Shown here: positions 13,794 to 27,201 of the stretch, piece after piece
Layout of the letters: each line of letters starts with the position of its first letter
Numbering within the stretch: the stretch's first letter is position 1
Source of the DNA: Candidatus Aminicenantales bacterium
GTDB lineage: Bacteria > Acidobacteriota > Aminicenantia > Aminicenantales > Saccharicenantaceae
Direction of reading: 5' to 3'
DNA length: 64,000 bases
Assembly: GCA_049512315.1 (NCBI GenBank)
Contig: JBEKXF010000001.1
Span: 62,001 to 126,000, forward strand
Program-made: the position numbers and the translations under genes
The notes under the pieces: model-generated
Told to the model about the DNA's origin: nothing
The model's input: only the letters and a program-made list of their open reading frames with translations
Databases searched by the model: none

Positions 13794-14084
13794 TCAGTCG
13801 TTGAGCTTGCCGAGTTTGGCGAGCTCATCGTTGTAGTATTTCCGGTAGAGGATCTCCCACTCCCGGCTGCCTTCATCGATGGCTTTCTTCTGGGACTGGA
13901 TCTTGTCGATGGCCTTCTTGTCGAGGGCCTCGTAAAGCTTCATCTCGTCCTCGATCGTCCGGACGATGATGAGGCGGATCTCGTTCGGGTCGTCCATGAA
14001 CTCGACCTGGTCGTTCTTCTCGAGCACGTTGAGGACCTGGCGCGAGAGGTAATTGATCTTTTCCCGGGACAGGCGGTTGCTCAC
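13794..14084 (-). CDS. DUF507 family protein
   Basis: RLSREKINYLS...GSREWEILYRKYYNDEL; tandem with paralog. Confidence 0.75.
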   Translation of the reverse strand: MSNRLSREKINYLSRQVLNVLEKNDQVEFMDDPNEIRLIIVRTIEDEMKLYEALDKKAIDKIQSQKKAIDEGSREWEILYRKYYNDELAKLGKLND

Positions 14085-14359
14085 AGGACGATCCCCTTCT
14101 CTTTGGCCAGCTTGGTCTTGATCATCCGGAACATGGTCTGGTATTCGATATTCTCTTTCCGGATCTTCTCCATGTGCTTGTTGAGGATCTCGCGGACCTC
14201 CTGGTCGAGGCGGTCCTCCTTCTGGAACTCGTCGGTCATGAGGAGCGTGACCTCATCGAGCAGATGGGTCCTGTCCTCGGCGATGATCTTGCCTTCCTTA
14301 GTCAGGTTCCGCACGATCACGGACGACAGATGCTCGATTTGACCTTTGTTCAGGCGCAT
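14081..14359 (-). CDS. DUF507 family protein
   Basis: C-terminal part of ORF 14081..14860: MRLNKGQIEHLS...EDRLDQEVREIL...MFRMIKTKLAKEKGIVL. Confidence 0.75.
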   Translation of the reverse strand: MRLNKGQIEHLSSVIVRNLTKEGKIIAEDRTHLLDEVTLLMTDEFQKEDRLDQEVREILNKHMEKIRKENIEYQTMFRMIKTKLAKEKGIVL

Positions 14360-14459
14360 AACCTGAATAACATACAATAGGTCGGCCCAAAATTCAAGGT
14401 TCGATGGCCCTTTTTTTTCGTGGCCGGCGGCGGGCGCGGCGTTCCCCGGGCGGGGGACG

Positions 14460-15368
14460 TCACTTGACGACAAGGAAGGGAAGGAGACGGTCCCGGCCGG
14501 CGGACGGTCTGGCCAGCGCGAGAAGACTCCCCGAGGGGCTAACGACCCTGAAGATGGCGGCGTCGGACCGGGAGAGCGCTTCGCCCGAGGGCGGGACGAA
14601 ATGCTCGGGGAAAAGAGGCGACCCGTGGAGGACTCGGGCCGTGGCCTCGCTCGAGAGGACGAGGGCCGGCGACGCCGGGAGCAGCTGCTCCAGGGGGACC
14701 ACAAGCTCCGTGAGCCGGCCCCCGGCCAGGGCCTCCTCGATCCCGGCGACAGAGACGGCCTCGCTGACGTTATAGGGTCCCACCGACGTTCGCCGCAGGC
14801 TGTGGAGATGAGCGCCGCAGCCGATCTTGAGGCCGAGGTCATGGGCCAGGGAGCGGACATAGGTCCCCGACGAGCAGGCCACTTCGAATTCGACGAGGGG
14901 AGGCGCGTAGTTCCGAAGAACGAAGGAGCGGACGACGACGCGGGCGGGCTCCAGGGTGAATTCTTTACGGGCCCGGGCCAGCTTGTAGGCCCGGCTTCCG
15001 CCGATCTTCTTGGCGGAATAGGGGGGAGGGACCTGAAGGATCTCCCCCTCGAGGCTTCTCATGGCCGCGACAACGGCTTCGACGGGCGGGGAGTCCGCCT
15101 TTTCTTCCGATGCCGGACGGCCGGATGCATCGTACGTGTCCGTGGCGAAACCCAGCCGGATGGCTCCTTCGTAGGTCTTGTCCTGTCCGGAAAGGTAGGG
15201 AAAGAACCTCGTGGCCTGGCCGAGAGCCACGAGGAGGACGCCCGTCGCGTCGGGGTCCAGGGTCCCCCCGTGGCCGACACGCTTGAGCTTGAGGAGGCTC
15301 CGGACTCTCAGGACGACATCGTGTGACGTGCAGCCGCGGGGTTTGTCGACGATGAGGAGTCCGTCCAT
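14460..15368 (-). CDS. truB: tRNA pseudouridine(55) synthase TruB
   Basis: DKPRGCTSHDVV, GHGGTLDPDATG, VPPPYSAKK and CSSGTYVRSLAHDLG motifs. Confidence 0.97.
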   Translation of the reverse strand: MDGLLIVDKPRGCTSHDVVLRVRSLLKLKRVGHGGTLDPDATGVLLVALGQATRFFPYLSGQDKTYEGAIRLGFATDTYDASGRPASEEKADSPPVEAVVAAMRSLEGEILQVPPPYSAKKIGGSRAYKLARARKEFTLEPARVVVRSFVLRNYAPPLVEFEVACSSGTYVRSLAHDLGLKIGCGAHLHSLRRTSVGPYNVSEAVSVAGIEEALAGGRLTELVVPLEQLLPASPALVLSSEATARVLHGSPLFPEHFVPPSGEALSRSDAAIFRVVSPSGSLLALARPSAGRDRLLPFLVVK

Positions 15369-15369
15369 G
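15351..15369. repeat. att core, left copy (GATGAGGAGTCCGTCCATG)
   Basis: Identical to 25782-25800; minus strand encodes truB codons 1-6 (MDGLLI). Confidence 0.93.
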
Positions 15370-15376
15370 CTCTTTT

Positions 15377-16474
15377 TTAATTGATTGATTCGGGAAGAGT
15401 TGCGGGCTCCTCGATGGCTTCCGCGTGGAGTTTTAGGCGACTTCCGAGGAGGTCGGGAAGGTTCTCAACGGCCGCCCGCTTCGTCTTTGCGTCGCTCCGG
15501 CAGTAGCGGTTAAGGGCAACCGTGGGCGTGTCGCCGATCAGCTCCGAGACGGTGCGAATGTCGATGCCGGCCCGCAGCTGCCAGGTCGCGTAGGTATCCC
15601 TCAAGTCATGGATCCGCAGCCGGCCCTTGATCCCGGCCCTGGCCTTCGCCGTCACCCAGGCAATATCCAGGCTGCTGATCGGTTCACCCGTCCTTGGATT
15701 CTCGAAAAAGTACTCCTTGCCCGGCCGGAATCTTAATACCTCGAGCACCTGGGCGTCAAGCGGGATCGTCCGGGCTTTCCCGTTCTTGGCCCGGTCCGCG
15801 GTGATCGTCAGCTCGCCACGTCGAAAGTCCACGTCCCTCCGGGGCAGGTCAAGGAGCTCGCGGCGCCGCATTCCGGTGCCGAGGTAAATGACAATCGCGT
15901 CGCGGAGGTACCCGGGGTCGGCAACCTCGACGAGCCGCCGGGCCTCCTCGAGCTCCAGGATCCTCGGCTTGAACTCCGGCTCCCGCTTCAGGAGTCCCTT
16001 CATCGGCAGGGGATAGGCGGCGAGCTTGCCGTACCGAACGGCCAGGTAGAGGATGGCCCTCAAGCACGCGACCTCCCTATTGATCGTTGCCGTCGACAAG
16101 CCCACCCGGCTGGCTCGGTAGCGGTCAACGCCCTCGGCGCTGATGTCTTTGAGAGCCGAGGTTGAGAAAAACTTCTTCAGCTGGCCGACGCTCCGCTCGT
16201 CCCAGTCGTAGGACCGTTTGTGGCAGGCGTAGAGGCGAAGATAGTCATCGGCGAAAGCTGAAAAGCGCACGACTTCTCCCTCCGGCCTCTTGGCAGGGAG
16301 CCCTTGGGCCGAATCCCGGCCCCAGGCCCTCAGCTTGTCCCGGTAGTCCCTGGCCTTGGTCTCAGTCGGGCCCGCCTTCTCGCGGTAGCGCTGGCCCTTG
16401 ACTTGAATGTCGATCCACCACCAACCGTCACGGAAGAAGAGATTGCGTTTGTCCCTCGAGTGAATTCTCTTCAT
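15377..16474 (-). CDS. Tyrosine recombinase/integrase
   Basis: N-terminal arm-binding WWWIDIQVKGQRYRE; TGMRRRELL, KNGK, HDLRDT, LIGD...NRY; strong RBS. Confidence 0.95.
   Translation of the reverse strand: MKRIHSRDKRNLFFRDGWWWIDIQVKGQRYREKAGPTETKARDYRDKLRAWGRDSAQGLPAKRPEGEVVRFSAFADDYLRLYACHKRSYDWDERSVGQLKKFFSTSALKDISAEGVDRYRASRVGLSTATINREVACLRAILYLAVRYGKLAAYPLPMKGLLKREPEFKPRILELEEARRLVEVADPGYLRDAIVIYLGTGMRRRELLDLPRRDVDFRRGELTITADRAKNGKARTIPLDAQVLEVLRFRPGKEYFFENPRTGEPISSLDIAWVTAKARAGIKGRLRIHDLRDTYATWQLRAGIDIRTVSELIGDTPTVALNRYCRSDAKTKRAAVENLPDLLGSRLKLHAEAIEEPATLPESIN
15378..15390 (-). promoter_or_regulatory. Candidate IHF-binding site next to left att
   Basis: Minus strand AATCAATCAATTA matches WATCARNNNNTTR. 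Confidence 0.5.
15424..15443. repeat. Candidate integrase arm-type site
   Basis: CGTGGAGTTTTAGGCGACTT, 17/20 identical to 25624-25643 at the other element end. Confidence 0.6.
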
Positions 16475-16508
16475 GGTCTCCTCCTCAGGCCCTGGCCCTC
16501 CGAAAAGG

Positions 16509-16742
16509 TCAGACGGGGAACTGCCTCTTCTTGGAAAGGCCGATCTTCAGCATCGTCAATGACATCATCGTGGCAATTCGGTGCGCCTGGTAGGTCACGT
16601 GATACGCGCCATCGTGACCCTTCTTTAGCCCCAACTCTTCGGGTTTCCTGGCCAGCAACTTGGAAATCTTCATGGTATTTTTGATGGCCTCAGCCTCCGC
16701 CTCATCTGCTTTTGCCGTGAGTTTATAGCCCTTCTTCGTCAT
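16509..16742 (-). CDS. Small basic hypothetical protein (77 aa)
   Basis: AAGGAGGAGACC-ATG RBS; directly upstream of integrase. Confidence 0.6.
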   Translation of the reverse strand: MTKKGYKLTAKADEAEAEAIKNTMKISKLLARKPEELGLKKGHDGAYHVTYQAHRIATMMSLTMLKIGLSKKRQFPV

Positions 16743-16757
16743 GGTCTCCTCCTTACT

Positions 16758-16952
16758 TCACCGTCGCCCTTCCTTCTCGTCTTGATGATCCCGGCACCTT
16801 ACGGACCGGCATTCCACCCGTTGAGGCTCCCACCAGCTGCAAAGCCGGCCGGCGCATTCTCCGAGCAGCGGGCAGCGGAGCGGGTTGCCTTTCGAATCGT
16901 GCGGCCAGGCCGCGGCCAAGCGCCGGAAATCCGGCTTAATCCCGGCGTCCAT
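16758..16952 (-). CDS. Small Cys-rich hypothetical protein (64 aa)
   Basis: CPLLGECAGRLCSWW...C motif; co-directional with the integrase unit; start re-called. Confidence 0.45.
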   Translation of the reverse strand: MDAGIKPDFRRLAAAWPHDSKGNPLRCPLLGECAGRLCSWWEPQRVECRSVRCRDHQDEKEGRR

Positions 16953-17285
16953 TTGGCTTTCCCGTCCATTGGTCCTCCCAGCGGCTTGCCGACGACGCCG
17001 CCCGCAGCAGCACCCAAAGAATGAATAGAGCCACAGCCGCAATGAAAAACCCCACGATCCGAAAGATCATATTCCCCCTCCCCCTTTGAGCCCGGAGCGA
17101 AGCCAGCCAAGGACGGGACGTGATGGGGGATTTGCCCGGAATGGGGCAGAGACGCTTGGCTTCGACCCCGGATGTTTTCCATCATGTCGTTTCCGTCCTC
17201 ATCCCAGAGTGTCTCATTGCGTTCCAAGCCGTGTCAAGCTTTATTTTCCCTTCCAATCGGACCGGCTTTCGGCTATGTTTTCCCC

Positions 17286-17456
17286 ATGAACAACCTGATC
17301 AGCGTCCCCGAGCTTTGCGCCATGCTCAAGATCTCCCGATCCACGCTCTACCGGCACCTTCAGGCCGGCGAGCTGCGGGCTGTCAAGCTCGGCCGGAGGC
17401 GCCTCTTCCGCCCCAAGGACATCGACGCGTTCGTCCGAAAGCATCTGGAAAAGTAA
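17286..17456 (+). CDS. Excisionase/AlpA-like HTH protein (56 aa)
   Basis: LISVPELCAMLKISRSTLYRHLQAGELRAVKLGRRRLF is a classic HTH_17 pattern. Confidence 0.85.
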   Translation: MNNLISVPELCAMLKISRSTLYRHLQAGELRAVKLGRRRLFRPKDIDAFVRKHLEK

Positions 17457-17532
17457 GCCCGGGCGGCTCCATATATCGCCAGGGAAGGAGTACCCGGCTT
17501 CCAACTGAGGCCGCCGCCCGAGCTCGTCATTT

Positions 17533-17856
17533 CTAATCCAGTTTGATGAAGGGATTCGTTTCAGGCTCGAGATACTTCTGGCGCTCGGCTTCGGCCTTGG
17601 CGTATCGAACCTTTCTGGCTTCGGACATCAAGGCATCCTGCAGCTCCCGGCCGGCCGTGGACAAGATCTCGCCACAACTCTCCTCCGGCCCTTGGAGGAA
17701 GAACCCCTCGCCGCCCTTGAAGAGCTTCGTCCCGTCGTCGAAGAGGCTCTCCGTGGCCCCGCCCAGGACGTCCTCGGCGGCGCGGATGAGGGTTGCCTCG
17801 TCGGGAGCGGGCAGATTGATCGTCCCGTCATGAGCAAAGATCGGATCGTCGCTCAT
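17533..17856 (-). CDS. Acidic hypothetical protein (107 aa)
   Basis: ATGA overlap with upstream gene; last gene of the packaging-module transcript. Confidence 0.6.
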   Translation of the reverse strand: MSDDPIFAHDGTINLPAPDEATLIRAAEDVLGGATESLFDDGTKLFKGGEGFFLQGPEESCGEILSTAGRELQDALMSEARKVRYAKAEAERQKYLEPETNPFIKLD

Positions 17857-18494
17857 TCGCCGCCTGCCTCTTTGAGTTTCGCCGCCCTGATCTCCAGACT
17901 CTTGTCGAGAAGATCCCGCAGCTGACGCTCACGGTCGGTCTGCGCCTGGAAGTTGGCCTGGTTCTCCGCCCGAAACTGCTCAAGGGTTAAGAGCGGTAGG
18001 CCGGCCTTGGACCGCTCGGCGTTTCTTCTCTCGAGCCACGCGAGTTCGCTCCGCTTCCTCTCGGCTGCGTCCTTGACCGACTTCTCAGCCAAGAAACGCT
18101 CGATCTCCGCCGGGGTGAGAAGCTTCAAATGCCCACCCGACACTCGACGGGCCCAATTGCATTTAGGGCAAGCCGCCCCCGCGTGCTCCGCGCGGAACGG
18201 CGCCGCGACGTCGCAGCCGCGGTTGTCGCACTTCATCCAGGCCGTCTTGACCTTCGCAAGCCGTTTGGCCACGATGGCGGCCAGGCCCGCGATCTCCGCC
18301 GGGGTGGCCTGTTCAACGAGCTCTGCCTCGTGAGAAAGGGTTGTCCCGGACCGCATCCCATGCAGCGGACCCGCCGGGCGTTTCGCGTCCTGGGCGACCC
18401 GGTCGGTCATGTCGCGGCTCTGTAAAAACTTCCGCAGTTTTTCGACGGTCATCGGTGGTGCGCCTGGCTGTTCAACTTTTAATTCTTTCTTCAT
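17853..18494 (-). CDS. Hypothetical protein with Zn-ribbon-like Cys pairs and coiled-coil tail (213 aa)
   Basis: CDNRGC...CPKC; strong AGGAGG RBS. Confidence 0.65.
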   Translation of the reverse strand: MKKELKVEQPGAPPMTVEKLRKFLQSRDMTDRVAQDAKRPAGPLHGMRSGTTLSHEAELVEQATPAEIAGLAAIVAKRLAKVKTAWMKCDNRGCDVAAPFRAEHAGAACPKCNWARRVSGGHLKLLTPAEIERFLAEKSVKDAAERKRSELAWLERRNAERSKAGLPLLTLEQFRAENQANFQAQTDRERQLRDLLDKSLEIRAAKLKEAGGE

Positions 18495-18583
18495 TTAAAC
18501 CTCCTAATTTTTATCTTAAGAATCCGGACAGGCAGTCCGTCCCGCTCAAGCGACGGGTTCGGTTCTTCCCCACCTGCCCGGAT

Positions 18584-20086
18584 TCATCGATGCGCCCGTC
18601 CGGATCCCCACATTGGAAAACTTTGATCCCGGCAGCCCGGGCCGTCCACGGAAACATCTCCAACCAAGCCTAGGAATGCCTCGCCCCGGCTCTCGGACTC
18701 CGAGGCCAGCCAGACGGCACCGGCCAAGCTGTTGATAAGGTCGTCATGGCCGCCGGGAGCATGGTCGATCCGCGTGACCCCGCCGGTCAGGTTCCGCTTC
18801 TCAAGCCCCAACATCTGATCGACCAGACGATCGTCGTCCGGGATCTCGACAAGATCGCCCTGGAGCCTTACGGACAGGAACGCGTAGAGATCCGACTTCG
18901 CGACCGAGCACGGCTCAACGGTGATGTTATTCTTCGCAAAGTCCGAGCGGATCCACCCGATCGAGACGCGGTCCTCGGTAATTCCGCTGACATGGTATTC
19001 CCGGCAGATTGCCGTAAACCGCGCCACAACCTCCTTCGGATCGGCGGGGGGACGGACCTCATCCAACCGGTCAACGATAAGCTTCCCGCCGGCGGCGTGA
19101 CTCACCGCAAGAGTCATGCTGTCGCCCGACTTGACCAACTCGGACGGGTCGCAAAAGACGCGGTAAGTGCAACGCGGATTGTACGGCAAAGCAATGCGGC
19201 CCGGGACCACCGCCCGGGCGATGAGCTCCAGCGAAACGAACGTCTCCAAGTCATCCCGGAACTCGGCATAGTATTCCGTCTTCGCCTTGGAAGAATCCTT
19301 CAGCATGGCCCTGTCGATGATCGACTGCCGATACGTCGGGTTGAGGTCCGTCGTCCCCGACTTCCAGACGAGCACCGCGTCGTCCTCCTTGCCCCAGTAA
19401 TCGCGGAAGAGCTCGAAGGTCGGCCCGCTCCGGATGTAAGGCGTCGTCGGGATCAGCAGCTGCGCCCCTTCCGTCTCGCCCAGCGCAGGCTCGAGCGCGG
19501 TGATGACCTCGCCCGCCGGGTTGCGACTCGTCTCCTGGTCCATCCAAAAAGAAACTTCGTCTGCCGCAGCGCCCAAAATTCGCAGGCCTCTCAAAGTACG
19601 GAAACTCGAGGTATGAATCCCGATCGTTATCCTCCCGAGCTCCACCTCCTCGGCCGTCTCCCGCGTGACCATCCCCCGGAACGCGGGCTGCCGGAGGATG
19701 TCCTTCACGTATCCATGCACCACGGAGGCCTGCAGCTTATCCGCTGCCAAGCAAAGAAGGTACGCCTTGCCGAGAAACGGCGGCCAACGCTTGAACACAG
19801 CCGCGTGGACAAGCTTCAGTGCCGTGAAGAATGACTTCCCCGCGCGCCGCCCGGCCAGGATGAGGACCGTCTGGTAAGGACCCGACGGCCTGACCGTCCG
19901 CCCGGTGAACTTCTTGAATGTCTCAAACTCCGCGTCGGTCAACGACAAGCCGTCCATCGACTTCAAAAGCGTCAGCCAGGTCCCCACCGTGGATAGGTCC
20001 TTGAAGATCTCCAGACCGCCGAACACGCGCCGGTCCTGAATCGCCTGGATGATGTCCAGCGGCGGGAGAACAGCCGGCTTCGTCAT
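18584..20086 (-). CDS. Phage terminase large subunit
   Basis: Walker A AGRRAGKS, Walker B AAADEVSF, motif III PTTPY, RNase H-like VFCDPS...GHDDLINSLAG; start re-called at ATG 20086 (ATGA overlap). Confidence 0.85.
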   Translation of the reverse strand: MTKPAVLPPLDIIQAIQDRRVFGGLEIFKDLSTVGTWLTLLKSMDGLSLTDAEFETFKKFTGRTVRPSGPYQTVLILAGRRAGKSFFTALKLVHAAVFKRWPPFLGKAYLLCLAADKLQASVVHGYVKDILRQPAFRGMVTRETAEEVELGRITIGIHTSSFRTLRGLRILGAAADEVSFWMDQETSRNPAGEVITALEPALGETEGAQLLIPTTPYIRSGPTFELFRDYWGKEDDAVLVWKSGTTDLNPTYRQSIIDRAMLKDSSKAKTEYYAEFRDDLETFVSLELIARAVVPGRIALPYNPRCTYRVFCDPSELVKSGDSMTLAVSHAAGGKLIVDRLDEVRPPADPKEVVARFTAICREYHVSGITEDRVSIGWIRSDFAKNNITVEPCSVAKSDLYAFLSVRLQGDLVEIPDDDRLVDQMLGLEKRNLTGGVTRIDHAPGGHDDLINSLAGAVWLASESESRGEAFLGLVGDVSVDGPGCRDQSFPMWGSGRAHR

Positions 20087-20433
20087 CTGCGACGCCCTAA
20101 ACGGTTCAGCTGCCGACGCAGCCAGCCCTGCTTCGCTTCGGGAGTCGTGTTGGCCGCAATCACCGCCTCGGCATGGGCCGCCTGACTGCCCTCGAGCGGG
20201 ACCGGACCCAAGCCCAAGGCCTGCCGGCGACGTTCCTCGGCCGCAGCTGCGCCCGGGCCGTAGTATTCGACCTCCGACCACTTGGTGCGAGTCATCGTCC
20301 CGGCAATGAACCTGGCGTCGTCCATCTGGACCGACGGGTGACCAGGGAACGGCCCAGCCTCACCCTTCGGCAAAGGCGATCGTTGGCCCGTCGCCGCGGC
20401 CCGTTTGAAGATCCTGCGTTGAATCTCACTCAT
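20083..20433 (-). CDS. Hypothetical protein (116 aa)
   Basis: Overlaps both neighbours in a tightly coupled operon; start re-called at MSEIQRR. Confidence 0.55.
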   Translation of the reverse strand: MSEIQRRIFKRAAATGQRSPLPKGEAGPFPGHPSVQMDDARFIAGTMTRTKWSEVEYYGPGAAAAEERRRQALGLGPVPLEGSQAAHAEAVIAANTTPEAKQGWLRRQLNRLGRRR

Positions 20434-20953
20434 GTTCTTTCCCTCCGAGTTCCCGGATCCTGGTCCGTAGGCCTTCAGCCCGACCCTCGGCCAGGGCCCC
20501 CTCAATTTGCCTGGCCGAACAGGCCAACCGCCGGCAGCTCACGGAGCAAAATCGCTTCCGCTCACCGCGCCTCCCTGGCTTGAGGCCTACCAGGCAGACC
20601 TCGCACTTCCCCGTCCCGATGGCCACGGGGGCCCTATTTGAACCGTGCACGCTTTCCTGTGGCAGGTCCGCCCGGGTTGTAGGCGTCGCCGGGAAGTCCG
20701 CAAACCTCAGGATGACGAGACAGTCCGCAAACCGCTTCCCCTTTTCCTTTAAGACCAAGAGCGGCACCTTCCCTTCCGCTGCGTTCGACTGAGCCTGGCC
20801 GTACGCTCCCTTCAGAAAGGCCGGCAGTTCGAGCCGCGTCTTGACCTCAACCGAATACCGATCATGCCTCACGTCCTCACGCCCCAGGATCCCGACCCGC
20901 TCCCCGCCGAGTTCCCTGGCGATCCGCCGCTCAACCTCCTTCCAGTTCCTCAA
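20426..20953 (-). CDS. PD-(D/E)xK nuclease, Holliday-junction-resolvase-like, with C-terminal Cys cluster
   Basis: WKEVERRIA...REDV...SVEVK pattern; C-terminal CEVC...FCSVSCR. Confidence 0.65.
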   Translation of the reverse strand: MRNWKEVERRIARELGGERVGILGREDVRHDRYSVEVKTRLELPAFLKGAYGQAQSNAAEGKVPLLVLKEKGKRFADCLVILRFADFPATPTTRADLPQESVHGSNRAPVAIGTGKCEVCLVGLKPGRRGERKRFCSVSCRRLACSARQIEGALAEGRAEGLRTRIRELGGKEHE

Positions 20954-21498
20954 GTCGGTTCCCCTTCGCCCCCCTCAGGCTCTCCATGCGGAGTGGCGGG
21001 TGCATCCTGGCCGCTCTCATGGGCCTCCAGTGGCGCTGCAGGCCCCGCCAGACGGCCTCCAGGGGCGTAGTCGGCCAGGATAGCCTCCAGAGGCGTCGCC
21101 TCGGCGGACCGGCGGTCGAGTCCCAAAAGGGCCAGGTTTGCTCTGATCTGACTGAGGAAAGACGAATATGCCCGCTCGAGGATGGGTTGAAAGGTCAGGA
21201 CGCCATACTTGGCCTGGTCTGGACGGACAACCGAGAACCTGCCGGCATAGAGTTCGGCCAGGGCGATCACGCCATAGGCCCGAATGGTTGTCCTGATGAG
21301 GATCTCCCGTTGGGCCGTCAGGTTGGCCTCGCCCCCTGAGTCCTCGACCAGGCGCCGCTCGAGGTCTGCCAGGTATCGTTGGACCTTGCGATATCCCTTG
21401 ATCGACGGATTCACCTTGCCTGTCCGAAGCCAATACTCGATCCCATGCGTGACCAGGGGCCGGGTCGCCGGTGGCATAGGTTTAGGTAATCTGGTCAA
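20950..21498 (-). CDS. Hypothetical protein, candidate terminase small subunit
   Basis: First gene of the operon leading to TerL; helical; QPIL...LALLGLDRR resembles the P27-type TerS C-terminal pattern. Confidence 0.4.
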   Translation of the reverse strand: MTRLPKPMPPATRPLVTHGIEYWLRTGKVNPSIKGYRKVQRYLADLERRLVEDSGGEANLTAQREILIRTTIRAYGVIALAELYAGRFSVVRPDQAKYGVLTFQPILERAYSSFLSQIRANLALLGLDRRSAEATPLEAILADYAPGGRLAGPAAPLEAHESGQDAPATPHGEPEGGEGEPT

Positions 21499-21685
21499 CT
21501 ATGGCCTCCTTGTGGCCCGAATCCGCCCCGATAAGGTACACGCCGAAAGTCGCCCAAAAGTCCACGGAAACGGCGAATCTCCCCGAGAGAACGTGGGACT
21601 TGGGATCCCACCTTGGGAGCAGTCCATTGCATTATGCAAGGAGGCTTCGAGGTGGATTTCTGAGGGCACGTTTTCGGCCATTTCA

Positions 21686-21906
21686 GCGGTTCCAATTGGC
21701 TGGAACTTCTGGATTTTGACAGGTGCTCGGGTGAGGTGGTTTTCGCATCTAGAAGTTCCGTAGAAGTTCCAAGGCCCATATGGGGAAAACCCCCTAGAAG
21801 TTCCAGAAGTTCCACAGAAGTTCCACGGTTCCGGAACCGCTGAGGGAGTGTGCGGTTCCGTTTCCCCCCTTAGGGGGGGAACCGCAGCTCGAACTTCTAG
21901 AACCGC
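21686..21906. repeat. Iteron cluster / putative replication origin
   Basis: AGAAGTTCC at 21751, 21762, 21796, 21805, 21816; inverted copies at 21702 and 21891 (8 bp); palindrome CGGTTCCGGAACCG 21826-21839; inverted repeat 21851-21886. Confidence 0.7.
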
Positions 21907-21914
21907 GGTAGTAT

Positions 21915-22109
21915 TCATCGGGGGTCCGTTTTGCATTGGCCGGTATAGTAGTGCTTTTCCCCGTTGACGATCTTGGTATGCCAGCGGCCCTCCTGTTCGC
22001 CGATGTCGAGAAGGGCAATGATATACGCCTCGTAGAGTTTTTCCTCGTTGGCTGGCATGGCTCGCTCAAGGGCCTGGAGGATCTGCATATCGCGTTCTTC
22101 TTTAGTCAT
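21915..22109 (-). CDS. Small hypothetical protein (64 aa)
   Basis: MTKEERDMQILQAL...; ATGA overlap with helicase stop. Confidence 0.5.
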   Translation of the reverse strand: MTKEERDMQILQALERAMPANEEKLYEAYIIALLDIGEQEGRWHTKIVNGEKHYYTGQCKTDPR

Positions 22110-23497
22110 GTCCTTGATCCTTCGATGGGGTAATACCGTTTTGAGTTCTTGAGGCCGTTTTCGATTTGCCAGTGCTTGCCTGCGCCTTTCTTGAGCCAGT
22201 CCAGAAGCTTCTTGCGGCTTGCCCGTCCGACCTTTTCCTCCAGGCACCAGTCGGCGATACGGTCCTGGATCAACCCATAGCCGGCGCCGGCGATATAGGC
22301 CCGGACCCTCTTGATGTCTTTGGTCTCGGGGTCCTCGGTGAGCTCGAGGCCGTGGCCGGTGAGGATCATGTGGAGGATCTCGGAGGGGGCGAATCTGGTC
22401 TTTTTCCCGGTGCCGAGGCAGAGGGGGGAGCCGAGCGGGATTTCGCCGCCGTCCTCCTCCTCGGAGTCTCGGCCCTTGGACTTGAAGAAGCAGATCGTAT
22501 GATCGGCCAGGTCCGCCCACGCCCCCGAGGCCTTGAGCTCGCGATCGTTGGCCTTGGGCGTATGATGCAGGATGAGGACGGTCATGCCCATGTCCCGCAA
22601 CTCGCGGCAGCGGCCCATGACCAGCGCGGCGACGTCGGAATCGTTCTCCTTCCCGTCGTGGGCGCTCCGGCTCGTGTCAATGATGACCAGGGCGTTCGAG
22701 GGGAGTGTTGTCTTGTAAAGGGCCCAGCCCAGGCTGTCGAATTTCGGAGGCCGGGGTTCCATCGTCGAGTGCCAGATCTTGGCGTTCATGGAACGCATAT
22801 TGAGGGCTTCGGCGCGGTCCTTCATGACCGTGAGGGGATTCTCCATGTCGATATAGACGACCGGCCTCTGCTTTGTCGCCCTGCCGAAGATCGGGAGCCC
22901 GGCCGAGACGGCTTCAGCAATCATGAGACAGGCCCAGGACTTGCCGATCGAAGTCCGGCCGTAGAGGACCGTGACGGAGTTCTCCGGTAGGAGGCCATCG
23001 ATCAGCCATTCTACATGGATGTCCATCGCCCTTAGTTCGGGGAAGCTGATGGAGGGACTGATCTGTTCGGCCGGGTCAAACGCCTGGCGGTTGATTCCAT
23101 CATAGGCCTCGAGATCTCCGCGGATCTCCTCAAGGTCGAGTTCTCCGGTCTTGGCCTGCTGTTCTATCTTCGCCAGGATCCGGGACGTCAACGCCCGGCG
23201 GCGGAGTTCCGAGACTCGGCCGAGAAAATTATTCGGGCTCAACCGGATGTTTCCATCCATGAGGGAGGCGACGAATTCGCCGACGTGGTCGCCCCCGATC
23301 CGGTCGACCAGGATCGCCAGGTCGATCGTCGCCGGTCTCGTTTCTTCCCAAAGCTTGGTTATAGCCGCAAAGACCCGGCGAAAGGGACCGGGTGAGAAGT
23401 CGGAATCGCGGAGGTCCGAGTTTTCCAGTAGCGCGGGCTGGAGGACCAGGGCACCCAAAAGGCCGCGCTCGATCTCCGTGGTCCGGGTCATAATCAT
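22106..23497 (-). CDS. Replicative helicase: DnaB N-terminal domain fused to AAA_25/RepA-type SF4 ATPase
   Basis: EIERGLLGAL...DF...RRVFAAI (DnaB-N); WLIDGLLP..VLYGRTSIGKS (Walker A), LVIIDT, LILHHTPK. Confidence 0.82.
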   Translation of the reverse strand: MIMTRTTEIERGLLGALVLQPALLENSDLRDSDFSPGPFRRVFAAITKLWEETRPATIDLAILVDRIGGDHVGEFVASLMDGNIRLSPNNFLGRVSELRRRALTSRILAKIEQQAKTGELDLEEIRGDLEAYDGINRQAFDPAEQISPSISFPELRAMDIHVEWLIDGLLPENSVTVLYGRTSIGKSWACLMIAEAVSAGLPIFGRATKQRPVVYIDMENPLTVMKDRAEALNMRSMNAKIWHSTMEPRPPKFDSLGWALYKTTLPSNALVIIDTSRSAHDGKENDSDVAALVMGRCRELRDMGMTVLILHHTPKANDRELKASGAWADLADHTICFFKSKGRDSEEEDGGEIPLGSPLCLGTGKKTRFAPSEILHMILTGHGLELTEDPETKDIKRVRAYIAGAGYGLIQDRIADWCLEEKVGRASRKKLLDWLKKGAGKHWQIENGLKNSKRYYPIEGSRT

Positions 23498-23503
23498 CCT
23501 TAA

Positions 23504-23962
23504 TTAGAACGGCACATCATCATCGCTGCCCGGACCCTTGTGATGGACGGCCTCATCGAGCGGATCCGGTCCGTCCTGGGCTGGATCCTCAGCGATTGCG
23601 GCGCCGTCAACCGGCTCGGCCGAGGCGACTAGTCGGCGCTCTTTGCCGTCCTTGGAGGCATACTTGACGATCGTGATCACGAATCTCCGGCCTTCCGGCC
23701 GGGCTGGGGCGTCAACGCCGCCGGCGGCATTTCTCCGGCCGCCGATGGCCAGCAGGGCGTCGGTCCAGGTCTCGGCGTCGGGTTGAAAACTCCAGATGAA
23801 CCTGACGGGCTCGCCTCCGCCCTTGGGGGTCAGCAAAAGCGGGGCCTGATAATATATCTTGTCTTCGTCGAATTTGCTCTGCTTCTCGAGCACGTCACCG
23901 GCGAGTTCGGCATAATAGACGCCGGGTTTCACCATCCGTGGGCTTGCCGATGGCACGTACAT
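23504..23962 (-). CDS. Putative ssDNA-binding protein
   Basis: Beta-rich core, acidic linker, C-terminal DDDVPF tip like SSB DDDIPF; directly upstream of helicase. Confidence 0.55.
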   Translation of the reverse strand: MYVPSASPRMVKPGVYYAELAGDVLEKQSKFDEDKIYYQAPLLLTPKGGGEPVRFIWSFQPDAETWTDALLAIGGRRNAAGGVDAPARPEGRRFVITIVKYASKDGKERRLVASAEPVDGAAIAEDPAQDGPDPLDEAVHHKGPGSDDDVPF

Positions 23963-24010
23963 TTTTCTCTCCTTATTCGAGTTTTGTTTTATCCGGGTCG
24001 CCGAGGTTGG

Positions 24011-24220
24011 TCATCTGGACCTCCGGAGCAGGAACTCGTCGAGCTGCGTCTTGTCGATCCTAATCGTGCAGTGATGGTGGCCGCAGCCGGTGGGGTTCCT
24101 ATGGCGGATCCTGATGCAGGGAATGAGATCTGCGTTGACCCAGCCCCGGACCGTGGCAGGCTTGCAATCCAGGTAGATTGCCGCGCTGCGGACGGTCAGG
24201 AACCTGGCCTCCACAGTCAC
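24011..24220 (-). CDS. Excisionase-like HTH protein
   Basis: FLTVRSAAIYLDCKPATVRGWV...IPCIRI...IRIDKTQLDEFL. Confidence 0.75.
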   Translation of the reverse strand: MTVEARFLTVRSAAIYLDCKPATVRGWVNADLIPCIRIRHRNPTGCGHHHCTIRIDKTQLDEFLLRRSR

Positions 24221-24423
24221 TTCTCCGGCGGCCAGAGGAAGTCCATCGGAAGATCCATGAACTCGCTGATTTTTTGTTTAATTTTGACGATCGAGGGAAT
24301 ATCCCTCACCGCACCGGTCTCGATCTTGGAGATCAGCGACTCTTCCGCGTCGACAGCCTTGCCGAGGTCGGCCTGCCGGAGGCCCTTTAGAAGCCGGGCC
24401 AGCTTGAGAGGTGATTCGTTCAT
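24217..24423 (-). CDS. Cro/Xre-type HTH regulator
   Basis: LKLARLLKGLRQADLGKAV...SLISKIETG HTH_3 pattern; TAGGAG RBS. Confidence 0.85.
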   Translation of the reverse strand: MNESPLKLARLLKGLRQADLGKAVDAEESLISKIETGAVRDIPSIVKIKQKISEFMDLPMDFLWPPEK

Positions 24424-24439
24424 TCATATCTCCTAATGT

Positions 24440-24473
24440 TTCTGTTGACAGAATAAGGCCGGAAGTTCATAAT
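24440..24473 (+). promoter_or_regulatory. Near-consensus promoter with operator-like palindrome over -35
   Basis: TTGACA 24445-24450, 17 nt spacer, CATAAT 24468-24473; TTCTGT-tg-ACAGAA palindrome 24440-24453. Confidence 0.7.
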
Positions 24474-24482
24474 TCCTAGAGC

Positions 24483-25058
24483 GTGTATACACAACTGGAC
24501 TTCTGCCCACGCAGCCCCCGGCATCACAGTCTTCTTGAGCAAGCCGAATTTCTATTGCGCGATCTCGTGGCTGGCCGAGTCCATAAATTTCCCTGTAATT
24601 GCGGTGCCTGTATTGATTGGGCCTACCGTCGGGTCAAGAGGGGCGAGGGTCGCTTATTTTCTGCGAAGACGGTCTTCGTCTACTTCCTGCGGACCGCTTT
24701 CCTCAAAAAGACGCTGGCGAACACTCGATCGGTTACGGTTCGCGAGGTGGAAGAAGAGGCCTGGCGACGAAATGAGATTGCCTGGTATGCCGATCTCAGG
24801 GACCGCCCTCGCATAGTGCCCATAGTCTCCGGTTATTTTGTTTATTGGGACGAGGTTCGAAAGGCCACAAAAAGCCAAACATTGGATGCGATAAAGAAAC
24901 TTGCGAAAGCAAAGCAGCCTCCGGCCGCGAAGATGTTTCTTCGTGGGATCCTGAATAAAAAGTCGTTCTATACCTACTACAACCGGGCTGGCGATGCGGA
25001 GCTCGGCCTGATCGTGCGAGGGATGCGGAAGAAATTGGGGAGCATGGTTGAGCGATAA
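24483..25058 (+). CDS. Basic hypothetical protein (191 aa) with CxCxxC
   Basis: Divergent from Cro; GTG 9 nt after the -10 box. Confidence 0.6.
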   Translation: MYTQLDFCPRSPRHHSLLEQAEFLLRDLVAGRVHKFPCNCGACIDWAYRRVKRGEGRLFSAKTVFVYFLRTAFLKKTLANTRSVTVREVEEEAWRRNEIAWYADLRDRPRIVPIVSGYFVYWDEVRKATKSQTLDAIKKLAKAKQPPAAKMFLRGILNKKSFYTYYNRAGDAELGLIVRGMRKKLGSMVER

Positions 25059-25093
25059 CGCGCGTCATGCTCCCGGACTGAACAGAGGCTTAA

Positions 25094-25600
25094 ATGAACA
25101 GACCAGAGAAAAAGTTTAAGTGTTTGGGCTATTTTTGGCTGGTCAAGAGACAATACAATAGACTGAAGCTAACCCACGACGGAGTTCCATTTACGCCGGG
25201 GCCCATAAATTTCGATTCAGGAGATCTTGAACTCGATTTCTTTGCCTTCTTTTTGTTTTGTTATCATCTTAAGGACTGGATCAAAAAAGATCCCAGCGTG
25301 GATAAAAAGACAAAGACCGGCGTTGAGGATTTTATTAACTCGACACCATGTCTCTTAGATTGCGCGAATCTGGCTAATGGAATTAAGCATCTGAGACTCG
25401 ATAAACCGCCGAGAGGTAATCGGAGGCCGAGATTTAAGTCGGTCCATAGGAAAGCTCACTGGACTCCAGAATCGGTGGTTGTCGTCGATTCTATCACAAT
25501 GGGAACCGATGAGGGCGAGATAGAAGCCTTTGATCTCGCATCGAAATGTCTTGCGGCCTGGCAGGATTATATCGATAAACACATTTTAGGATCGGCTTGA
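25094..25600 (+). CDS. AT-rich cargo protein, HEPN-like
   Basis: FF..CYHLKDW and LANGIKH motifs; GAGG RBS; composition differs from host. Confidence 0.5.
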   Translation: MNRPEKKFKCLGYFWLVKRQYNRLKLTHDGVPFTPGPINFDSGDLELDFFAFFLFCYHLKDWIKKDPSVDKKTKTGVEDFINSTPCLLDCANLANGIKHLRLDKPPRGNRRPRFKSVHRKAHWTPESVVVVDSITMGTDEGEIEAFDLASKCLAAWQDYIDKHILGSA

Positions 25601-25623
25601 GGGCACGGCTGACCCTCAAAGCC

Positions 25624-25643
25624 CGTGGACTTTATGGCGACTT
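25624..25643. repeat. Candidate integrase arm-type site
   Basis: CGTGGACTTTATGGCGACTT, 17/20 identical to 15424-15443. Confidence 0.6.
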
Positions 25644-25717
25644 TTGAATCAAAAAAGGCTCAAAAACAGTGCAAAACAGCATTGGCCGAGAAGTGAGCTG
25701 AATTCTCCACGCTTTTA

Positions 25718-25730
25718 TAAGTTGCTGATT
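25718..25730 (-). promoter_or_regulatory. Candidate IHF-binding site near right att
   Basis: Minus strand AATCAGCAACTTA matches WATCARNNNNTTR. Confidence 0.55.
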
Positions 25731-25781
25731 TAATAGGTGATACAAGAGAAAAACGGGAGAACGAGGTCCTCACCCCCCACG

Positions 25782-25800
25782 GATGAGGAGTCCGTCCATG
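25782..25800. repeat. att core, right copy; truB stub MDGLLIRGG*
   Basis: Identical to 15351-15369; 24 nt downstream of the DHH gene stop, where truB originally began. Confidence 0.93.
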
Positions 25801-25824
25801 GGAATCCGGGGGCGGCCGGGCCCG

Positions 25825-26817
25825 CTATTCGGAGGCTGTCGAAGCCCCGGCCGGATCCGCGTCGAGCAGGTCCTGCACGGTCTTCGGGACCTCACGGATC
25901 AGGCGCTCGTAAGGCCCATAGACGGTGAAACCCGAGGCGTGGACGTGCCCGCCGCCACCGAAATGCTCGGCCACGCGGGCTGCGTTCGCCCGGCCTTTCG
26001 ATCTCAGGCTGATGCGGAACGTGTCCTTGCCCATTTCCTTGAAGAACATGACCATTTCCGTGCCCTTGATGGACCGGGCCAGGGTCGTGATGTCCTCGGT
26101 GTCGATCTCTTTGAGGCCGAGGGCCTCGAGGTCCCGCTGGAACATGCTGATGATGGCGATGTTGCCCTTCGTGTTCATGGTCAGCGTCGAGAGGACCTGC
26201 CCCAGGAGCTTGATCTTCTCGGGCGGGTTGTTGTTCAGCAGCCGCTCCGAGACACGGATGGGGCTCGCCCCGAGCCGGGTCAGGCTCGTGCACGTTTCAA
26301 GGGCCTTGGCCGTCGTGTTGGAGAACTGGAAAGAGCCCGTGTCCGAGAAGATGGCGCAGTAGAGGTGGTCGGCGATCTCCGGGGTTAGGGTGATGTCCAG
26401 GCAACGGCTGAGGTCGAAGACCATCTCGCCGACGGCCGAGGCGCCGGGATCGATCCAGTTGATGTCGGCATAGGGGGTGTTCGAATAATGATGGTCGATA
26501 TTGATCTTGAACGCGCCGCCCAGGTGCTCCTGACCGGAGCGGGAGACGTCCGCGCACTCGAGGAGAATGACGGTGTCAAACCCGGACGGGTCGATCTGCC
26601 CGATCCGGATCCTCCCGGCGTCGGGAAAATGGCAGAACGGGAAAGGGGTGTTGTCCTTGTTGACGACCGAGACCTCTTTCCCCAGGAGGTCGCCCATCCG
26701 GCTCAGGGCGAGGCCGGTACAGAGGGAATCGCCGTCCGGACGGAGGTGGGAGGTCACGGCAATCCGCCGGGACTTCCGGATCCGGGAAGCGATCTCGAGT
26801 CGGGGATCAGGTGTCAT
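25825..26817 (-). CDS. nrnA: DHH/DHHA1 phosphoesterase (NrnA-like)
   Basis: HLRPDGD, IDHH, DTGSF and GGGGHVHASG motifs. Confidence 0.88.
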   Translation of the reverse strand: MTPDPRLEIASRIRKSRRIAVTSHLRPDGDSLCTGLALSRMGDLLGKEVSVVNKDNTPFPFCHFPDAGRIRIGQIDPSGFDTVILLECADVSRSGQEHLGGAFKINIDHHYSNTPYADINWIDPGASAVGEMVFDLSRCLDITLTPEIADHLYCAIFSDTGSFQFSNTTAKALETCTSLTRLGASPIRVSERLLNNNPPEKIKLLGQVLSTLTMNTKGNIAIISMFQRDLEALGLKEIDTEDITTLARSIKGTEMVMFFKEMGKDTFRISLRSKGRANAARVAEHFGGGGHVHASGFTVYGPYERLIREVPKTVQDLLDADPAGASTASE

Positions 26818-27160
26818 GTTTCTTCGTCCGTTCGATCAGCCGGTCGATCTTGTCCGCATACTCTGGACCCTCGTCCAGGGCAAAAAATAGTCCCGGATTA
26901 TACTTCAATTTGACCCGGGAGGCAAGGGTTTTGCGGATGTATCCCTTGCTCTTCTCCAACCGGTCGAGGAAGCCCTGCGGGTCGGCCGCCCCGAAGACGC
27001 TCAGGGAGACGTGGGCGTTGAGGAGGTCGGGAGTCACCTCGACCCGGGTCACGGTCACGAGCCCCGACGAGGGGTCCTGGAATTCGCGGATCATCAGGCG
27101 GCCGAGCTCTTCCTGGATGAGCTCGGCGACACGGCGGGCCCTCAGCCCCGGTTTCGTCAT
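26807..27160 (-). CDS. rbfA: Ribosome-binding factor A
   Basis: RARRVAELI...DP...VTVTRVEVTPDL...GYIRK..LKYNP. Confidence 0.93.
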   Translation of the reverse strand: MTKPGLRARRVAELIQEELGRLMIREFQDPSSGLVTVTRVEVTPDLLNAHVSLSVFGAADPQGFLDRLEKSKGYIRKTLASRVKLKYNPGLFFALDEGPEYADKIDRLIERTKKHDT

Positions 27161-27201
27161 CGCTCCTCTCCTTCTCCTTCGGCGGACGCGCGCTAGAGAT
27201 A

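Follow-up and report, generated by a model that had tools for sequence, protein, structure and literature searches.

An integrative element of 10,431 bp, inserted at the start codon of truB, carries a complete large terminase (TerL) gene and matches no capsid or portal family. Its boundaries and the family searches uphold a preliminary description of this DNA as an intact and discrete integrative element that has TerL but neither capsid nor portal. With moderate confidence, we interpret it as a helper-dependent phage satellite that integrates, replicates itself, has a complete terminase, and lacks virion genes. Coordinates refer to the window, the whole 64-kb stretch of DNA that was analyzed.

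Element boundaries and integration site

15351-15369, unstranded: attL, copy of a 19-bp direct repeat, corresponding to the first 19 nt of truB (a minus-strand gene)
25782-25800, unstranded: attR, second copy of the 19-bp direct repeat

The direct repeat GATGAGGAGTCCGTCCATG (19 nt) is exact at both positions, with a spacing of 10,431; by arithmetic, an exact 19-mer pair would occur by chance in 15.5 kb with a probability of ~4e-4. Its reverse complement corresponds to truB nucleotides 1 to 19, which include the start codon. A contig from metagenome run X4 (30,484 nt; depth, 38.8) jumps from 15350 to 25782 and so lacks exactly 10,431 nt; 19 nt are shared. This contig represents an empty-site strain that is ~92 to 95% identical and comes from a different peat metagenome; with its break exactly at the repeat, it is independent proof of the element boundaries, and the repeat-bounded element of 10,431 bp first proposed from the letters is therefore confirmed. 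Unitig ends of attB type were present in runs X1 to X3. The tyrosine integrase inserts the element at the truB 5' end, and the element's own end rebuilds the truB start.

No attP or circular junction was found in the contigs of the four runs (X1 to X4, total-community metagenome data); because metagenome contigs lose rare variants, a missing attP junction is weak evidence. In X1, the element unitig passes through both repeat edges without a break, and in X2 and X3 the pieces have the same kind of ends. Element depth was at or below that of the flanks (14.3 versus 15 to 16, 38 versus 56 to 70, and 9 to 10 versus 12 to 13).

Integration, regulation, and replication genes

15377-16474, minus strand: tyrosine integrase, 365 aa (PF00589, 3.1e-19; phrog_1, 8e-51)
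16509-16742, minus strand: orf77, no family match, one homologue (island L025, 59% identity)
17286-17456, plus strand: HTH_17 (AlpA/excisionase-type) DNA-binding protein (PF12728, 6.7e-16; phrog_66, 3.9e-9); start codon uncertain, ORF 17172-17456
21702-21824, unstranded: iteron cluster, six copies of GGAACTTCT in both orientations, within a 416-bp gap (21499-21914)
21915-22109, minus strand: orf64, small ORF with an ATGA overlap at the stop codon of the helicase gene, no family
22106-23497, minus strand: replicative helicase (AAA_25, PF13481, 1.1e-25; DnaB_N, PF00772, 1.6e-5; phrog_906 and phrog_19)
23504-23962, minus strand: orf152, acidic C-terminal tip DDDVPF
24011-24220, minus strand: second HTH_17 protein (PF12728, 3.5e-7)
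24217-24423, minus strand: Cro/XRE-type HTH_3 regulator (PF01381, 3.4e-5; phrog_3, 2.2e-5)
24445-24473, plus strand: promoter-like site in the divergent switch region (11/12 consensus positions, by consensus match alone)
24483-25058, plus strand: orf191, divergently transcribed, kept in elements L037 and L028
25094-25600, plus strand: orf168, low-GC accessory gene, no match in Pfam, PHROGs, NCBIfam, or PADLOC

Family searches (PF00589, HTH_17, HTH_3, and AAA_25 with DnaB_N) confirmed the integrase, Xis-like, Cro, and helicase genes named in the preliminary description. The integrase is 77% identical to that of the sister element L037 (dN/dS, 0.18). The helicase combines a DnaB N-terminal domain with an AAA_25/RepA-type ATPase, and no primase domain was found in the element. 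All six exact matches to GGAACTTCT in the 64-kb window fall inside 21702-21824 (0.62 expected); this cluster beside the helicase gene is a candidate replication origin, in line with the origin noted earlier, and known satellites likewise have an iteron origin adjoining a replication gene. The protein encoded by orf191 is 71% identical to its L037 counterpart over 162 aa (BLAST; 56% in full-length alignment) and 30% identical to that of L028, and it is possibly a master regulator. The SSB-like assignment of orf152 was not borne out, with no family or PDB match; what is left is the DDDVPF tip, which we take to resemble an SSB tail.

Packaging block

17533-17856, minus strand: orf107, conserved small protein, coupled to orf213 in translation; C-terminal P..NP.I motif invariant
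17853-18494, minus strand: orf213, zinc-ribbon and coiled-coil protein
18584-20086, minus strand: TerL, 500 aa, intact (phrog_2, 6.1e-23)
20083-20433, minus strand: orf80/116, small protein, overlaps TerL by ATGA, start either 20433 or 20325
20426-20953, minus strand: orf175, putative nuclease, C-terminal FCS-type zinc finger
20950-21498, minus strand: orf182, candidate small terminase (TerS), by synteny with TerL and fold leads

The block runs from the TerS-like orf182 through the putative nuclease orf175, orf80, and TerL to the coupled orf213 and orf107. The gene overlaps in the element, described earlier as many of ATGA type, comprise three ATGA, one TTGA, one GTGA, and one of 8 nt.

TerL has the predicted layout of tailed-phage enzymes, an N-terminal Walker A/B ATPase followed by a C-terminal RNase H-like nuclease with acidic residues. 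Among PDB entries, its profile matches 6z6d in the ATPase region and, at 4e-6 to 6e-6, the TerL nuclease domains of 5tge and 5m1f; the columns invariant among 27 sequences are Walker A GRRAGKS at 79, DE at 176-177, D313, D372, H442, and D449. Compared with L037, whose TerL is 91% identical, dN/dS was 0.10 at a dS of 0.67. With the phrog_2 match, these data support the earlier impression of an intact TerL; judged by its sequence, it is a real terminase under purifying selection.

For orf182, no Pfam, PHROG, or PDB sequence match was found, and its 63 listed homologues are nameless or annotated "hypothetical protein." Fold leads, all sub-threshold, were a Terminase_4 cluster in the Atlas (0.93), 9 small terminases among the 15 best BFVD rows (E, 0.09 to 0.6), and a Z score of 7.5 for its model against HK97 TerS. 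Of 16 relatives' loci, 15 have a member of the family adjoining TerL, and the two genes often overlap by 4 bp. A predicted orf182-TerL complex scored 0.45, against 0.00 for the best control, and was classed as weak support. Of 157 solved complexes, 116 attained this mark, as did 2 of 215 mismatches, but just 18 of the 157, and both mismatches, did so with a score of 0.60 or less. Agreement between runs was 33% of contacts or more, and partner pLDDT was at least 64. The synteny, together with fold leads that are weak but concordant for P27/HK97-type small terminases, makes orf182 a TerS candidate.

The nuclease assignment of orf175 found no family match; a D..ExK-like motif was noted by eye, and matches to 2w0t (E, 0.029) and zf-FCS (E, 0.092) were weak. 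In relatives L024 and L028, a RusA resolvase gene separates TerL from the orf182-like gene; L044 and L048 have no orf182-like gene, and their RusA is directly upstream of TerL or two ORFs before it. The orf80 product is 92.5% identical to that of L037 over 80 aa (dN/dS, 0.10) and the orf107 product 83% identical (dN/dS, 0.107); orf107 had 13 homologues in 1.84 billion representatives, and its model (pLDDT, 78) gave no informative fold match. Besides the window's own protein, orf213 had one homologue, the L037 copy (45%), and its Atlas scores (≤0.81) were at chance level. In protein P0129, an N-terminal zinc-ribbon-like segment that precedes the orf107 domain looks similar to orf213 (alignment, by eye).

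Virion genes in the element and host genome

None of the 17 element proteins matched a head, portal, tail, or lysis family in PHROGs, nor were such families found in the Pfam, NCBIfam, and PADLOC scans, in agreement with the original reading that no structural or lysis gene is present. A check of the ORFs for an HK97 capsid or portal found none big enough and none matching either family, the largest ORF without assignment being 213 aa. Connector and adaptor families gave no PHROG or Pfam match, in searches that may miss small adaptor folds. The host genome (96.6% complete) had 0 matches to PF05065, PF04860, and phrog_10, and thus no detectable HK97 capsid or portal, so a helper would need an outside origin. 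It contains seven TerL islands in all, six besides the truB element.

Related elements

Sister element L037 (~11.2 kb) is inserted elsewhere, at the 3' end of a gpsA-like gene (by eye), and has a 28-bp repeat. TerL homologues were found in 15 of 41 related genomes and in 13 of 301 phylum-wide. Eleven bounded elements (7.7 to 16.4 kb), flanked by 30- to 60-bp tRNA-derived repeats, come from Acidobacteriota, mostly Aminicenantes, and share the order integrase, replication, TerS-like, TerL. Of the 16 relatives' loci, 13 have an integrase, as do 10 of the 12 phylum loci. PHROG searches of 24 loci gave no portal, one capsid (L023), and two strong tape-measure matches; tape measure and neck proteins occur among L027, L031, and L026. 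Relatives of 30 to 50 kb, which would have suggested a deleted prophage, were absent from the genome loci fetched, the close relatives being bounded islands of the same layout. The element is a member of a recurrent family, not a one-off deletion.

Genuine phages belong to the wider TerL clade: in IMG/VR, a named portal family lies downstream of TerL in 22 of 54 loci tested, so the enzyme is one that tailed phages use for packaging. The TerL branches made up of islands alone are deep. Among 50,697 GenBank phage records, the sole TerL match was Synechococcus phage S-CBS4 (two accession records), at 24% identity; no cultured system is at hand to guide inference.

Comparison with known satellites

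P4 depends on the terminase of its helper and a cos site, and it carries sid/psu/delta and the P4 alpha primase. Like P4-like satellites, the element is integrative, has its own replication, lacks capsid genes, and would use helper capsids; unlike them, it has a terminase, and neither sid/psu/delta nor the alpha primase found a match (PHROGs, Pfam, and NCBIfam; general profiles). P4 is described as being without capsid, tail, and lysis functions (available text of PMC4936722).

With PICIs (SaPIs and the Gram-negative AlpA type), the element shares its ~10-kb size, an integrase at one end, AlpA/HTH_17 and Cro-type regulators, its own replication protein by an iteron-type origin, a small-terminase-like gene, and the lack of capsid, tail, and lysis genes. 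Set against the PICI definition in the available text of PMC10085698, it has the integrase (the PF00589 and phrog_1 matches above) and, for alpA, merR, or stl homologues, two HTH_17 proteins and one HTH_3 protein by Pfam profiles; for the primase-replicase it has the DnaB_N and AAA_25 helicase with iterons and no primase domain, and for the small terminase, the syntenic orf182 with no family match. The same text describes PICIs without TerL and uses terL to separate cfPICIs from them, whereas the element has a full-length TerL, a packaging gene beyond terS. It also differs in its insertion at the truB 5' end, which is not a classical PICI site, and in its uncultured Aminicenantes host; no capsid-morphogenesis gene was recognized in it.

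Like cfPICIs, the element has its own TerL (and TerS candidate), which would make packaging independent of the helper terminase, but cfPICIs in addition have genes for the capsid, head-tail adaptor, and connector (PMC10085698, available text), and no such family, major capsid included, was matched in the element. VEIMEs, PICMIs, and EPIPs, likewise small and integrative, have been detected in phage particles or are inferred to use these. As far as the accessible descriptions go, some VEIMEs carry small terminases (PMC9618062), PICMIs are minimal and reliant on a DNA motif (PMC11389934), and EPIPs have TerS, a tape-measure gene, a capsid gene, and a serine integrase (PMC12822802); the tape-measure gene recurs in some relatives of the truB element, while the capsid gene and serine integrase set EPIPs apart. 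A large terminase without capsid genes does not appear in these portions of the three descriptions. The layout is neither PICI, cfPICI, nor P4-like by published definitions and, as the preliminary description held, corresponds to no SatelliteFinder family as defined in the available text of PMC10085698. We found no published description of a capsid-less satellite with its own large terminase in the literature.

Interpretation

Phage satellites are defined by packaging in helper-made particles (PMC11389934, available text). When a tailed helper phage infects the cell or is induced, the element would excise and replicate from its iterons into concatemers, and its own TerS/TerL pair would recognize and cut element DNA. 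TerL would then dock on the helper portal and fill helper procapsids, with helper tails added afterward. The nuclease (RusA at the corresponding position in relatives) would clear branches from replication intermediates ahead of packaging, and orf213 and orf107 may act on helper head assembly or the portal.

TerL and its partners could instead form mainly an anti-phage interference or defense module, with island transfer incidental or absent; the island terminase would cut or mis-package infecting phage DNA, or titrate the portal, and so protect the host population. We consider this unlikely. Seven TerL islands in a host with no detectable capsid or portal, the low-GC accessory genes at one element end, the lack of an observed attP junction, and the disturbance of helper packaging by known satellites, as far as the sources describe it, all fit such a role. 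However, PADLOC gave no convincing match among 12 element proteins scanned, and a full integration, excision, and replication kit is kept together with a TerS-like gene while sister elements sit at new att sites, which argues for selection for mobility; nor are interference and transfer exclusive in known satellites. Mobility without phage particles, as a plasmid-like integrative element whose TerL-like ATPase-nuclease and orf182 process replication products (e.g., concatemer resolution) or serve another transfer route, seems less probable still. The autonomous replication module with iterons, the resolvase-type nuclease or RusA adjoining TerL in several relatives, and the deep island-only TerL branches would suit it, but the portal genes following TerL within the same clade in IMG/VR do not, and the virion parts in L027, L031, L026, and L023 make sense only with phage particles; moreover, no relaxase or other transfer gene was matched in the element or its relatives' loci (Pfam and PHROGs).

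Decay of a full prophage through deletion of its structural genes is very improbable. TerL and the TerS-like gene are phage genes, and the integrase gene of L028 and the capsid gene of L023 are split, as a remnant might show. Against this, dN/dS values relative to L037 are 0.10 to 0.18 for TerL, orf107, orf80, and the integrase, the genes are tightly packed with overlaps, the repeats are exact, the compact layout recurs in the 11 bounded elements and the 15 related genomes, and the closest relative, L037, is itself of similar compactness.

We see a roughly even case for extending the satellite interpretation to a whole lineage, in which Acidobacteriota, and Aminicenantes above all, would harbor old and diverse satellites of 8 to 16 kb whose constant tool is their own TerS-like protein and TerL, rather than capsid remodeling or TerS alone. 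Members would add single virion parts (tape measure, neck protein, or capsid), and several islands would co-reside in one genome without a detectable capsid or portal. A satellite motor would then have to dock on foreign portals, with TerL-portal compatibility setting the helper range. Among known strategies, PICIs redirect the helper terminase with their own small subunit, P4 relies on the helper terminase fully, and cfPICIs bring a whole head; an island bringing the motor alone would be a fourth satellite strategy, and the sharp question would be how a foreign TerL engages the helper portal. Lone terminase genes in metagenome-assembled genomes would then be neither simply prophage debris nor reliable prophage markers, and the range of phage satellites would extend to a soil and peat lineage that is abundant and uncultured.

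Insertion site and host context

The host genome is 3.55 Mb long (77 contigs; 96.6% complete), and DNA of the window is present in peat metagenomes. The element lies between two exact copies of a 19-nt direct repeat (15351-15369 and 25782-25800; spacing, 10,431 nt), which matches the start of truB (first 19 nt) in reverse complement. The element's neighbors are as follows.

14460-15368, minus strand: truB (TruB_N, 6.3e-48)
Other side of the element from truB: DHH/DHHA1 phosphoesterase gene, read as NrnA-like
Beyond the phosphoesterase gene: rbfA, a DUF503 gene, and infB, identified by eye from translations

Because the repeat is the 5' end of truB, and from the genes on either side, the insertion breaks a conserved operon immediately upstream of truB, and the element's own end restores the truB start. 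The insertion severs truB from its operon; a terminator-like hairpin lies just inside the right end of the element (25756-25778), and a weak promoter-like site was seen upstream of truB, in the 3' portion of the integrase gene (15730-15759). No Rfam family was detected within 15000-26200 and no tRNA gene in the window; the element therefore has no tRNA attachment site, unlike most relatives.

The insertion was checked by placing contigs of four public peat metagenome runs (X1 to X4) on window positions 13800-27400. One X4 contig (30,484 nt; depth, 38.8) connects 15350 to 25782, with exactly 10,431 nt absent and the 19 nt fitting either side; it differs from the window by 132 and 85 letters on its two flanks and shows the site cleanly unoccupied in a related strain. 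The exact repeat and an empty site cut precisely there bear out the preliminary description of a bounded 10,431-bp element with 19-bp repeats. In X1, X2, and X3, the element was found at 99 to 100% of sampled words, and short loose ends match the opposite flank (GGTTTGTCGAC before 25782; GGAATCCGGGG behind 15369), so empty-site k-mers coexist with the element in these runs. Excision was set aside as their source, since a related strain could supply them; it was likewise rejected for the symmetric flanks (104 nt) of contig L036 and the unitig breaks, both of which are explained by co-occurring empty-site strains. No circular junction (attP) was seen in contigs of the four runs and no unitig break marks one, but contigs drop rare variants, which leaves this negative little weight. 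Element depth did not exceed flank depth. A depth-7 contig variant in X3, with 25 other letters for 58 nt at 20973-21032 and 441 nt skipped within 21105-21547 (the orf182 region), suggests that this sample contains another version of the element as well.

Gene content

Element genes are listed below (orf numbers are lengths in amino acids; orf80/116 has two possible starts).

Minus strand, in order of transcription: Cro-like HTH_3 gene, second HTH_17 gene, orf152, helicase gene, orf64, 416-bp gap, orf182, orf175, orf80/116, terL, orf213, orf107
Minus strand, before orf64: the helicase gene (DnaB_N and AAA_25)
Plus strand, after orf107 in gene order: HTH_17 AlpA/Xis-type gene
End of the gene order, past the AlpA/Xis-type gene: orf77, then the integrase gene
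Plus strand, far end of the element: orf191 and low-GC orf168, behind a strong promoter-like site

The 416-bp gap between orf64 and orf182 holds all six copies of GGAACTTCT in the window (0.62 expected), in agreement with the origin proposed earlier. Head, portal, tail, and lysis families had no match among element proteins (PHROGs and Pfam), and the longest unassigned ORF is 213 aa, less than an HK97-type capsid or a portal would need; the absence of a recognizable structural or lysis gene thus stands. NCBIfam gave no match for element ORFs of unassigned function, and PADLOC gave no convincing match for 12 element proteins. Two assignments of the preliminary description were not borne out: orf152 as SSB-like (no family or PDB support and no OB-fold family match detected) and orf175 as a nuclease (no family or PDB support). 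The product of orf152 (23504-23962) ends in DDDVPF, which resembles the acidic tip of bacterial SSB.

Besides the window's own protein, orf213 has a single homologue, and its Atlas scores were at chance level. The orf107 model (pLDDT, 78) had no BFVD match at an E value of ≤0.001, and its best PDB match (Z, 5.0) was under the noise bar. One orf107 homologue, P0129 (303 aa; compared with window 17533-18494), carries the orf107 domain at residues 194 to 302 and, by eye, a zinc-ribbon-like segment resembling orf213 in its N-terminal part. This layout would suggest that the products of the overlapping orf213 and orf107 genes work together.

Terminase genes

The element TerL matches phrog_2 (6.1e-23) and, by profile, solved TerL nuclease and ATPase domains. 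Its Walker A motif, DE pair, and nuclease aspartates are invariant in 27 homologues, and dN/dS against the sister element L037 is 0.10 at a dS of 0.67. By every available test (invariant residues, profile matches, and dN/dS), TerL is predicted from its sequence to be functional, as its intact appearance had indicated. L037, a metagenome contig, is identical to the element at 91% in TerL, 77% in integrase, 83% in orf107, 92.5% in orf80, 71% in orf175, 72% in Cro, and 71% over 162 aa in orf191 (56% when aligned over full length). L037 has a different replication module (a primase-like 201-aa protein and a 453-aa protein) and an orf182-type gene closer to the copies of other islands. Its 28-bp repeats place it elsewhere, in the 3' end of a gene that looks gpsA-like by eye. 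The two elements differ by modular exchange and a change of attachment site, as in a living mobile-element lineage.

orf182, constant in its position before TerL, probably encodes the small terminase (TerS). It had no family match and no PDB sequence match, and its 63 listed homologues are all unnamed or "hypothetical protein." An Atlas neighbor cluster with Terminase_4 scored 0.93 (191 of 256 features; TM, 0.41), and of the 15 best BFVD rows, nine were annotated as small terminase (E, 0.09 to 0.6). Foldseek against PDB gave nothing at an E value of ≤0.001; a VIA search ranked the HK97 small terminase fourth, with a Z of 7.5 (rmsd, 4.2 over 89 residues) that is within the noise range common for helical bundles. 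The predicted orf182-TerL complex scored 0.45, and its best control scored 0.00, which the tool grades as "weak support." Of 157 solved complexes, 116 reach this mark, as do 2 of 215 mismatches, but just 18 of the 157, along with both mismatches, do so at ≤0.60. Contacts agreed between runs by at least 33%, and partner pLDDT was at least 64. The stretch 21499-21700, or one inside orf182, is a candidate pac/cos site.

Six further TerL genes in the host genome, about 33% identical to the element TerL and 85 to 88% to each other (DNA), mark a second type of island (loci L002-L008 and L131).

C2:21618-22952, second island type
C5:150599-151939, second island type
C43:11232-12569, second island type
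C50:4694-6019, second island type
C59:1917-3254, second island type
C72:1015-2354, second island type

Here TerL has a Cys-rich N-terminal extension and is preceded by two paralogous proteins (174 and 195 aa) of unassigned function and, in three of the six copies, also by a 203-aa catalytic-domain-only tyrosine recombinase. The copies are 85 to 88% identical over 1.5 to 3 kb, and some carry Ser/Thr-kinase/TPR genes of about 1000 aa. The host genome had no match to PF05065, PF04860, or phrog_10.

Related islands

TerL homologues (36 to 44% identity) occurred in 15 of 41 related genomes including the host (9 of the 24 that share its family) and, at an E value of ≤1e-20, in 13 of 301 genomes of an even phylum sample; the loci examined were 16 from relatives, 11 from the phylum, and 3 named ones. 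A scan of genome contigs with the close TerL alignment (A4) returned three loci only. TerL has an orf182-type gene as its neighbor in 15 of the 16 loci from relatives and 5 of 13 further loci, and an integrase is present in 13 of the same 16 and in 10 of 12 phylum loci. Most loci are flanked by tRNA genes; eleven elements (7,720 to 16,375 bp) are bounded by tRNA-derived repeats of 30 to 60 bp. In L024 and L028, a RusA resolvase gene separates the orf182-type gene from TerL; in two loci without an orf182-type gene, it is directly upstream of TerL (L044) or two ORFs before it (L048).

Two PHROG scans within chosen element ranges covered 150 proteins (≥60 aa) from 12 loci and 67 (≥100 aa) from another 12, the second without TerL, integrase, and orf182-type rows already labeled. 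No portal was found in these 24 loci; an HK97 capsid was found in one (L023, split in two ORFs), tape-measure matches were strong in L027 and L031 and weak in L025 and L026, and neck proteins occurred in two. L023 is an 8.9-kb tRNA-Leu island with TerL, a TerS-like gene, and a replication initiator, in which a portal was not found; its capsid ORFs (151 and 228 aa) lie at L023:12259-13397 on the minus strand. Some sister islands carry tape-measure and tail-completion/Neck1 genes by TerL, without capsid or portal (L027:7102-9420, L031:5878-8343, L026:7475-7933, and L031:4893-5363).

Viral relatives and TerL phylogeny

Scans of viral contigs with the element TerL alone and with A4 found no relative, and GenBank phages gave a single distant one, Synechococcus phage S-CBS4 (two accession records; 24% identity). 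The wider clade alignment (A6) retrieved 79 IMG/VR loci, and the 54 with a same-strand ORF of ≥250 aa among the five genes after TerL were tested for virion genes. A named portal family followed TerL in 22 of the 54 and DUF4055, which we take to be portal associated, in 4 more; five had an HK97 capsid but no portal match (L069, L075, L085, L093, and L100), three of which also carry an integrase.

A quick maximum-likelihood tree was built from 98 TerLs. In it, the element and L037 share a long branch, grouped with the host's six paralogues and with four Aminicenantes islands (12 rows, none portal linked; support of 90 to 94, under the tool's star). Ten Aminicenantes islands and two capsid-only IMG/VR loci fall together in a second clade (99, starred), and further acidobacterial islands branch as sisters to phages with a portal (100, starred). 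No fewer than four changes on starred branches are needed for the island state. TerL was therefore acquired from, or exchanged with, phages repeatedly, and some of the island lineages are old.

Comparison with known satellites

The layout differs from that of P4, as first proposed. It also differs from PICIs, in that the element has terL and no recognized capsid morphogenesis gene, and from cfPICIs, in that no capsid, adaptor, or connector was found (both as described in the accessible text of PMC10085698). Small terminases, tape-measure genes, or terminases generally come up in the accessible portions of a VEIME paper (PMC9618062), an EPIP paper (PMC12822802), and a review (PMC11389934), with no TerL-only design. 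Two candidate precedents were rejected: the available text of PMC4936722 says that satellite AH14b is without structural genes and discusses TerL for the helper, and that of a haloarchaeal preprint (10.1101/2025.02.15.638363) mentions TerL for viruses only. In the literature as far as its text was accessible, no published description of a TerL-only island was found, though supplements could list such elements. The steps from induction to packaging are ones that we infer for this element, and the facts presented here fit the life cycle of a satellite that supplies its own terminase.
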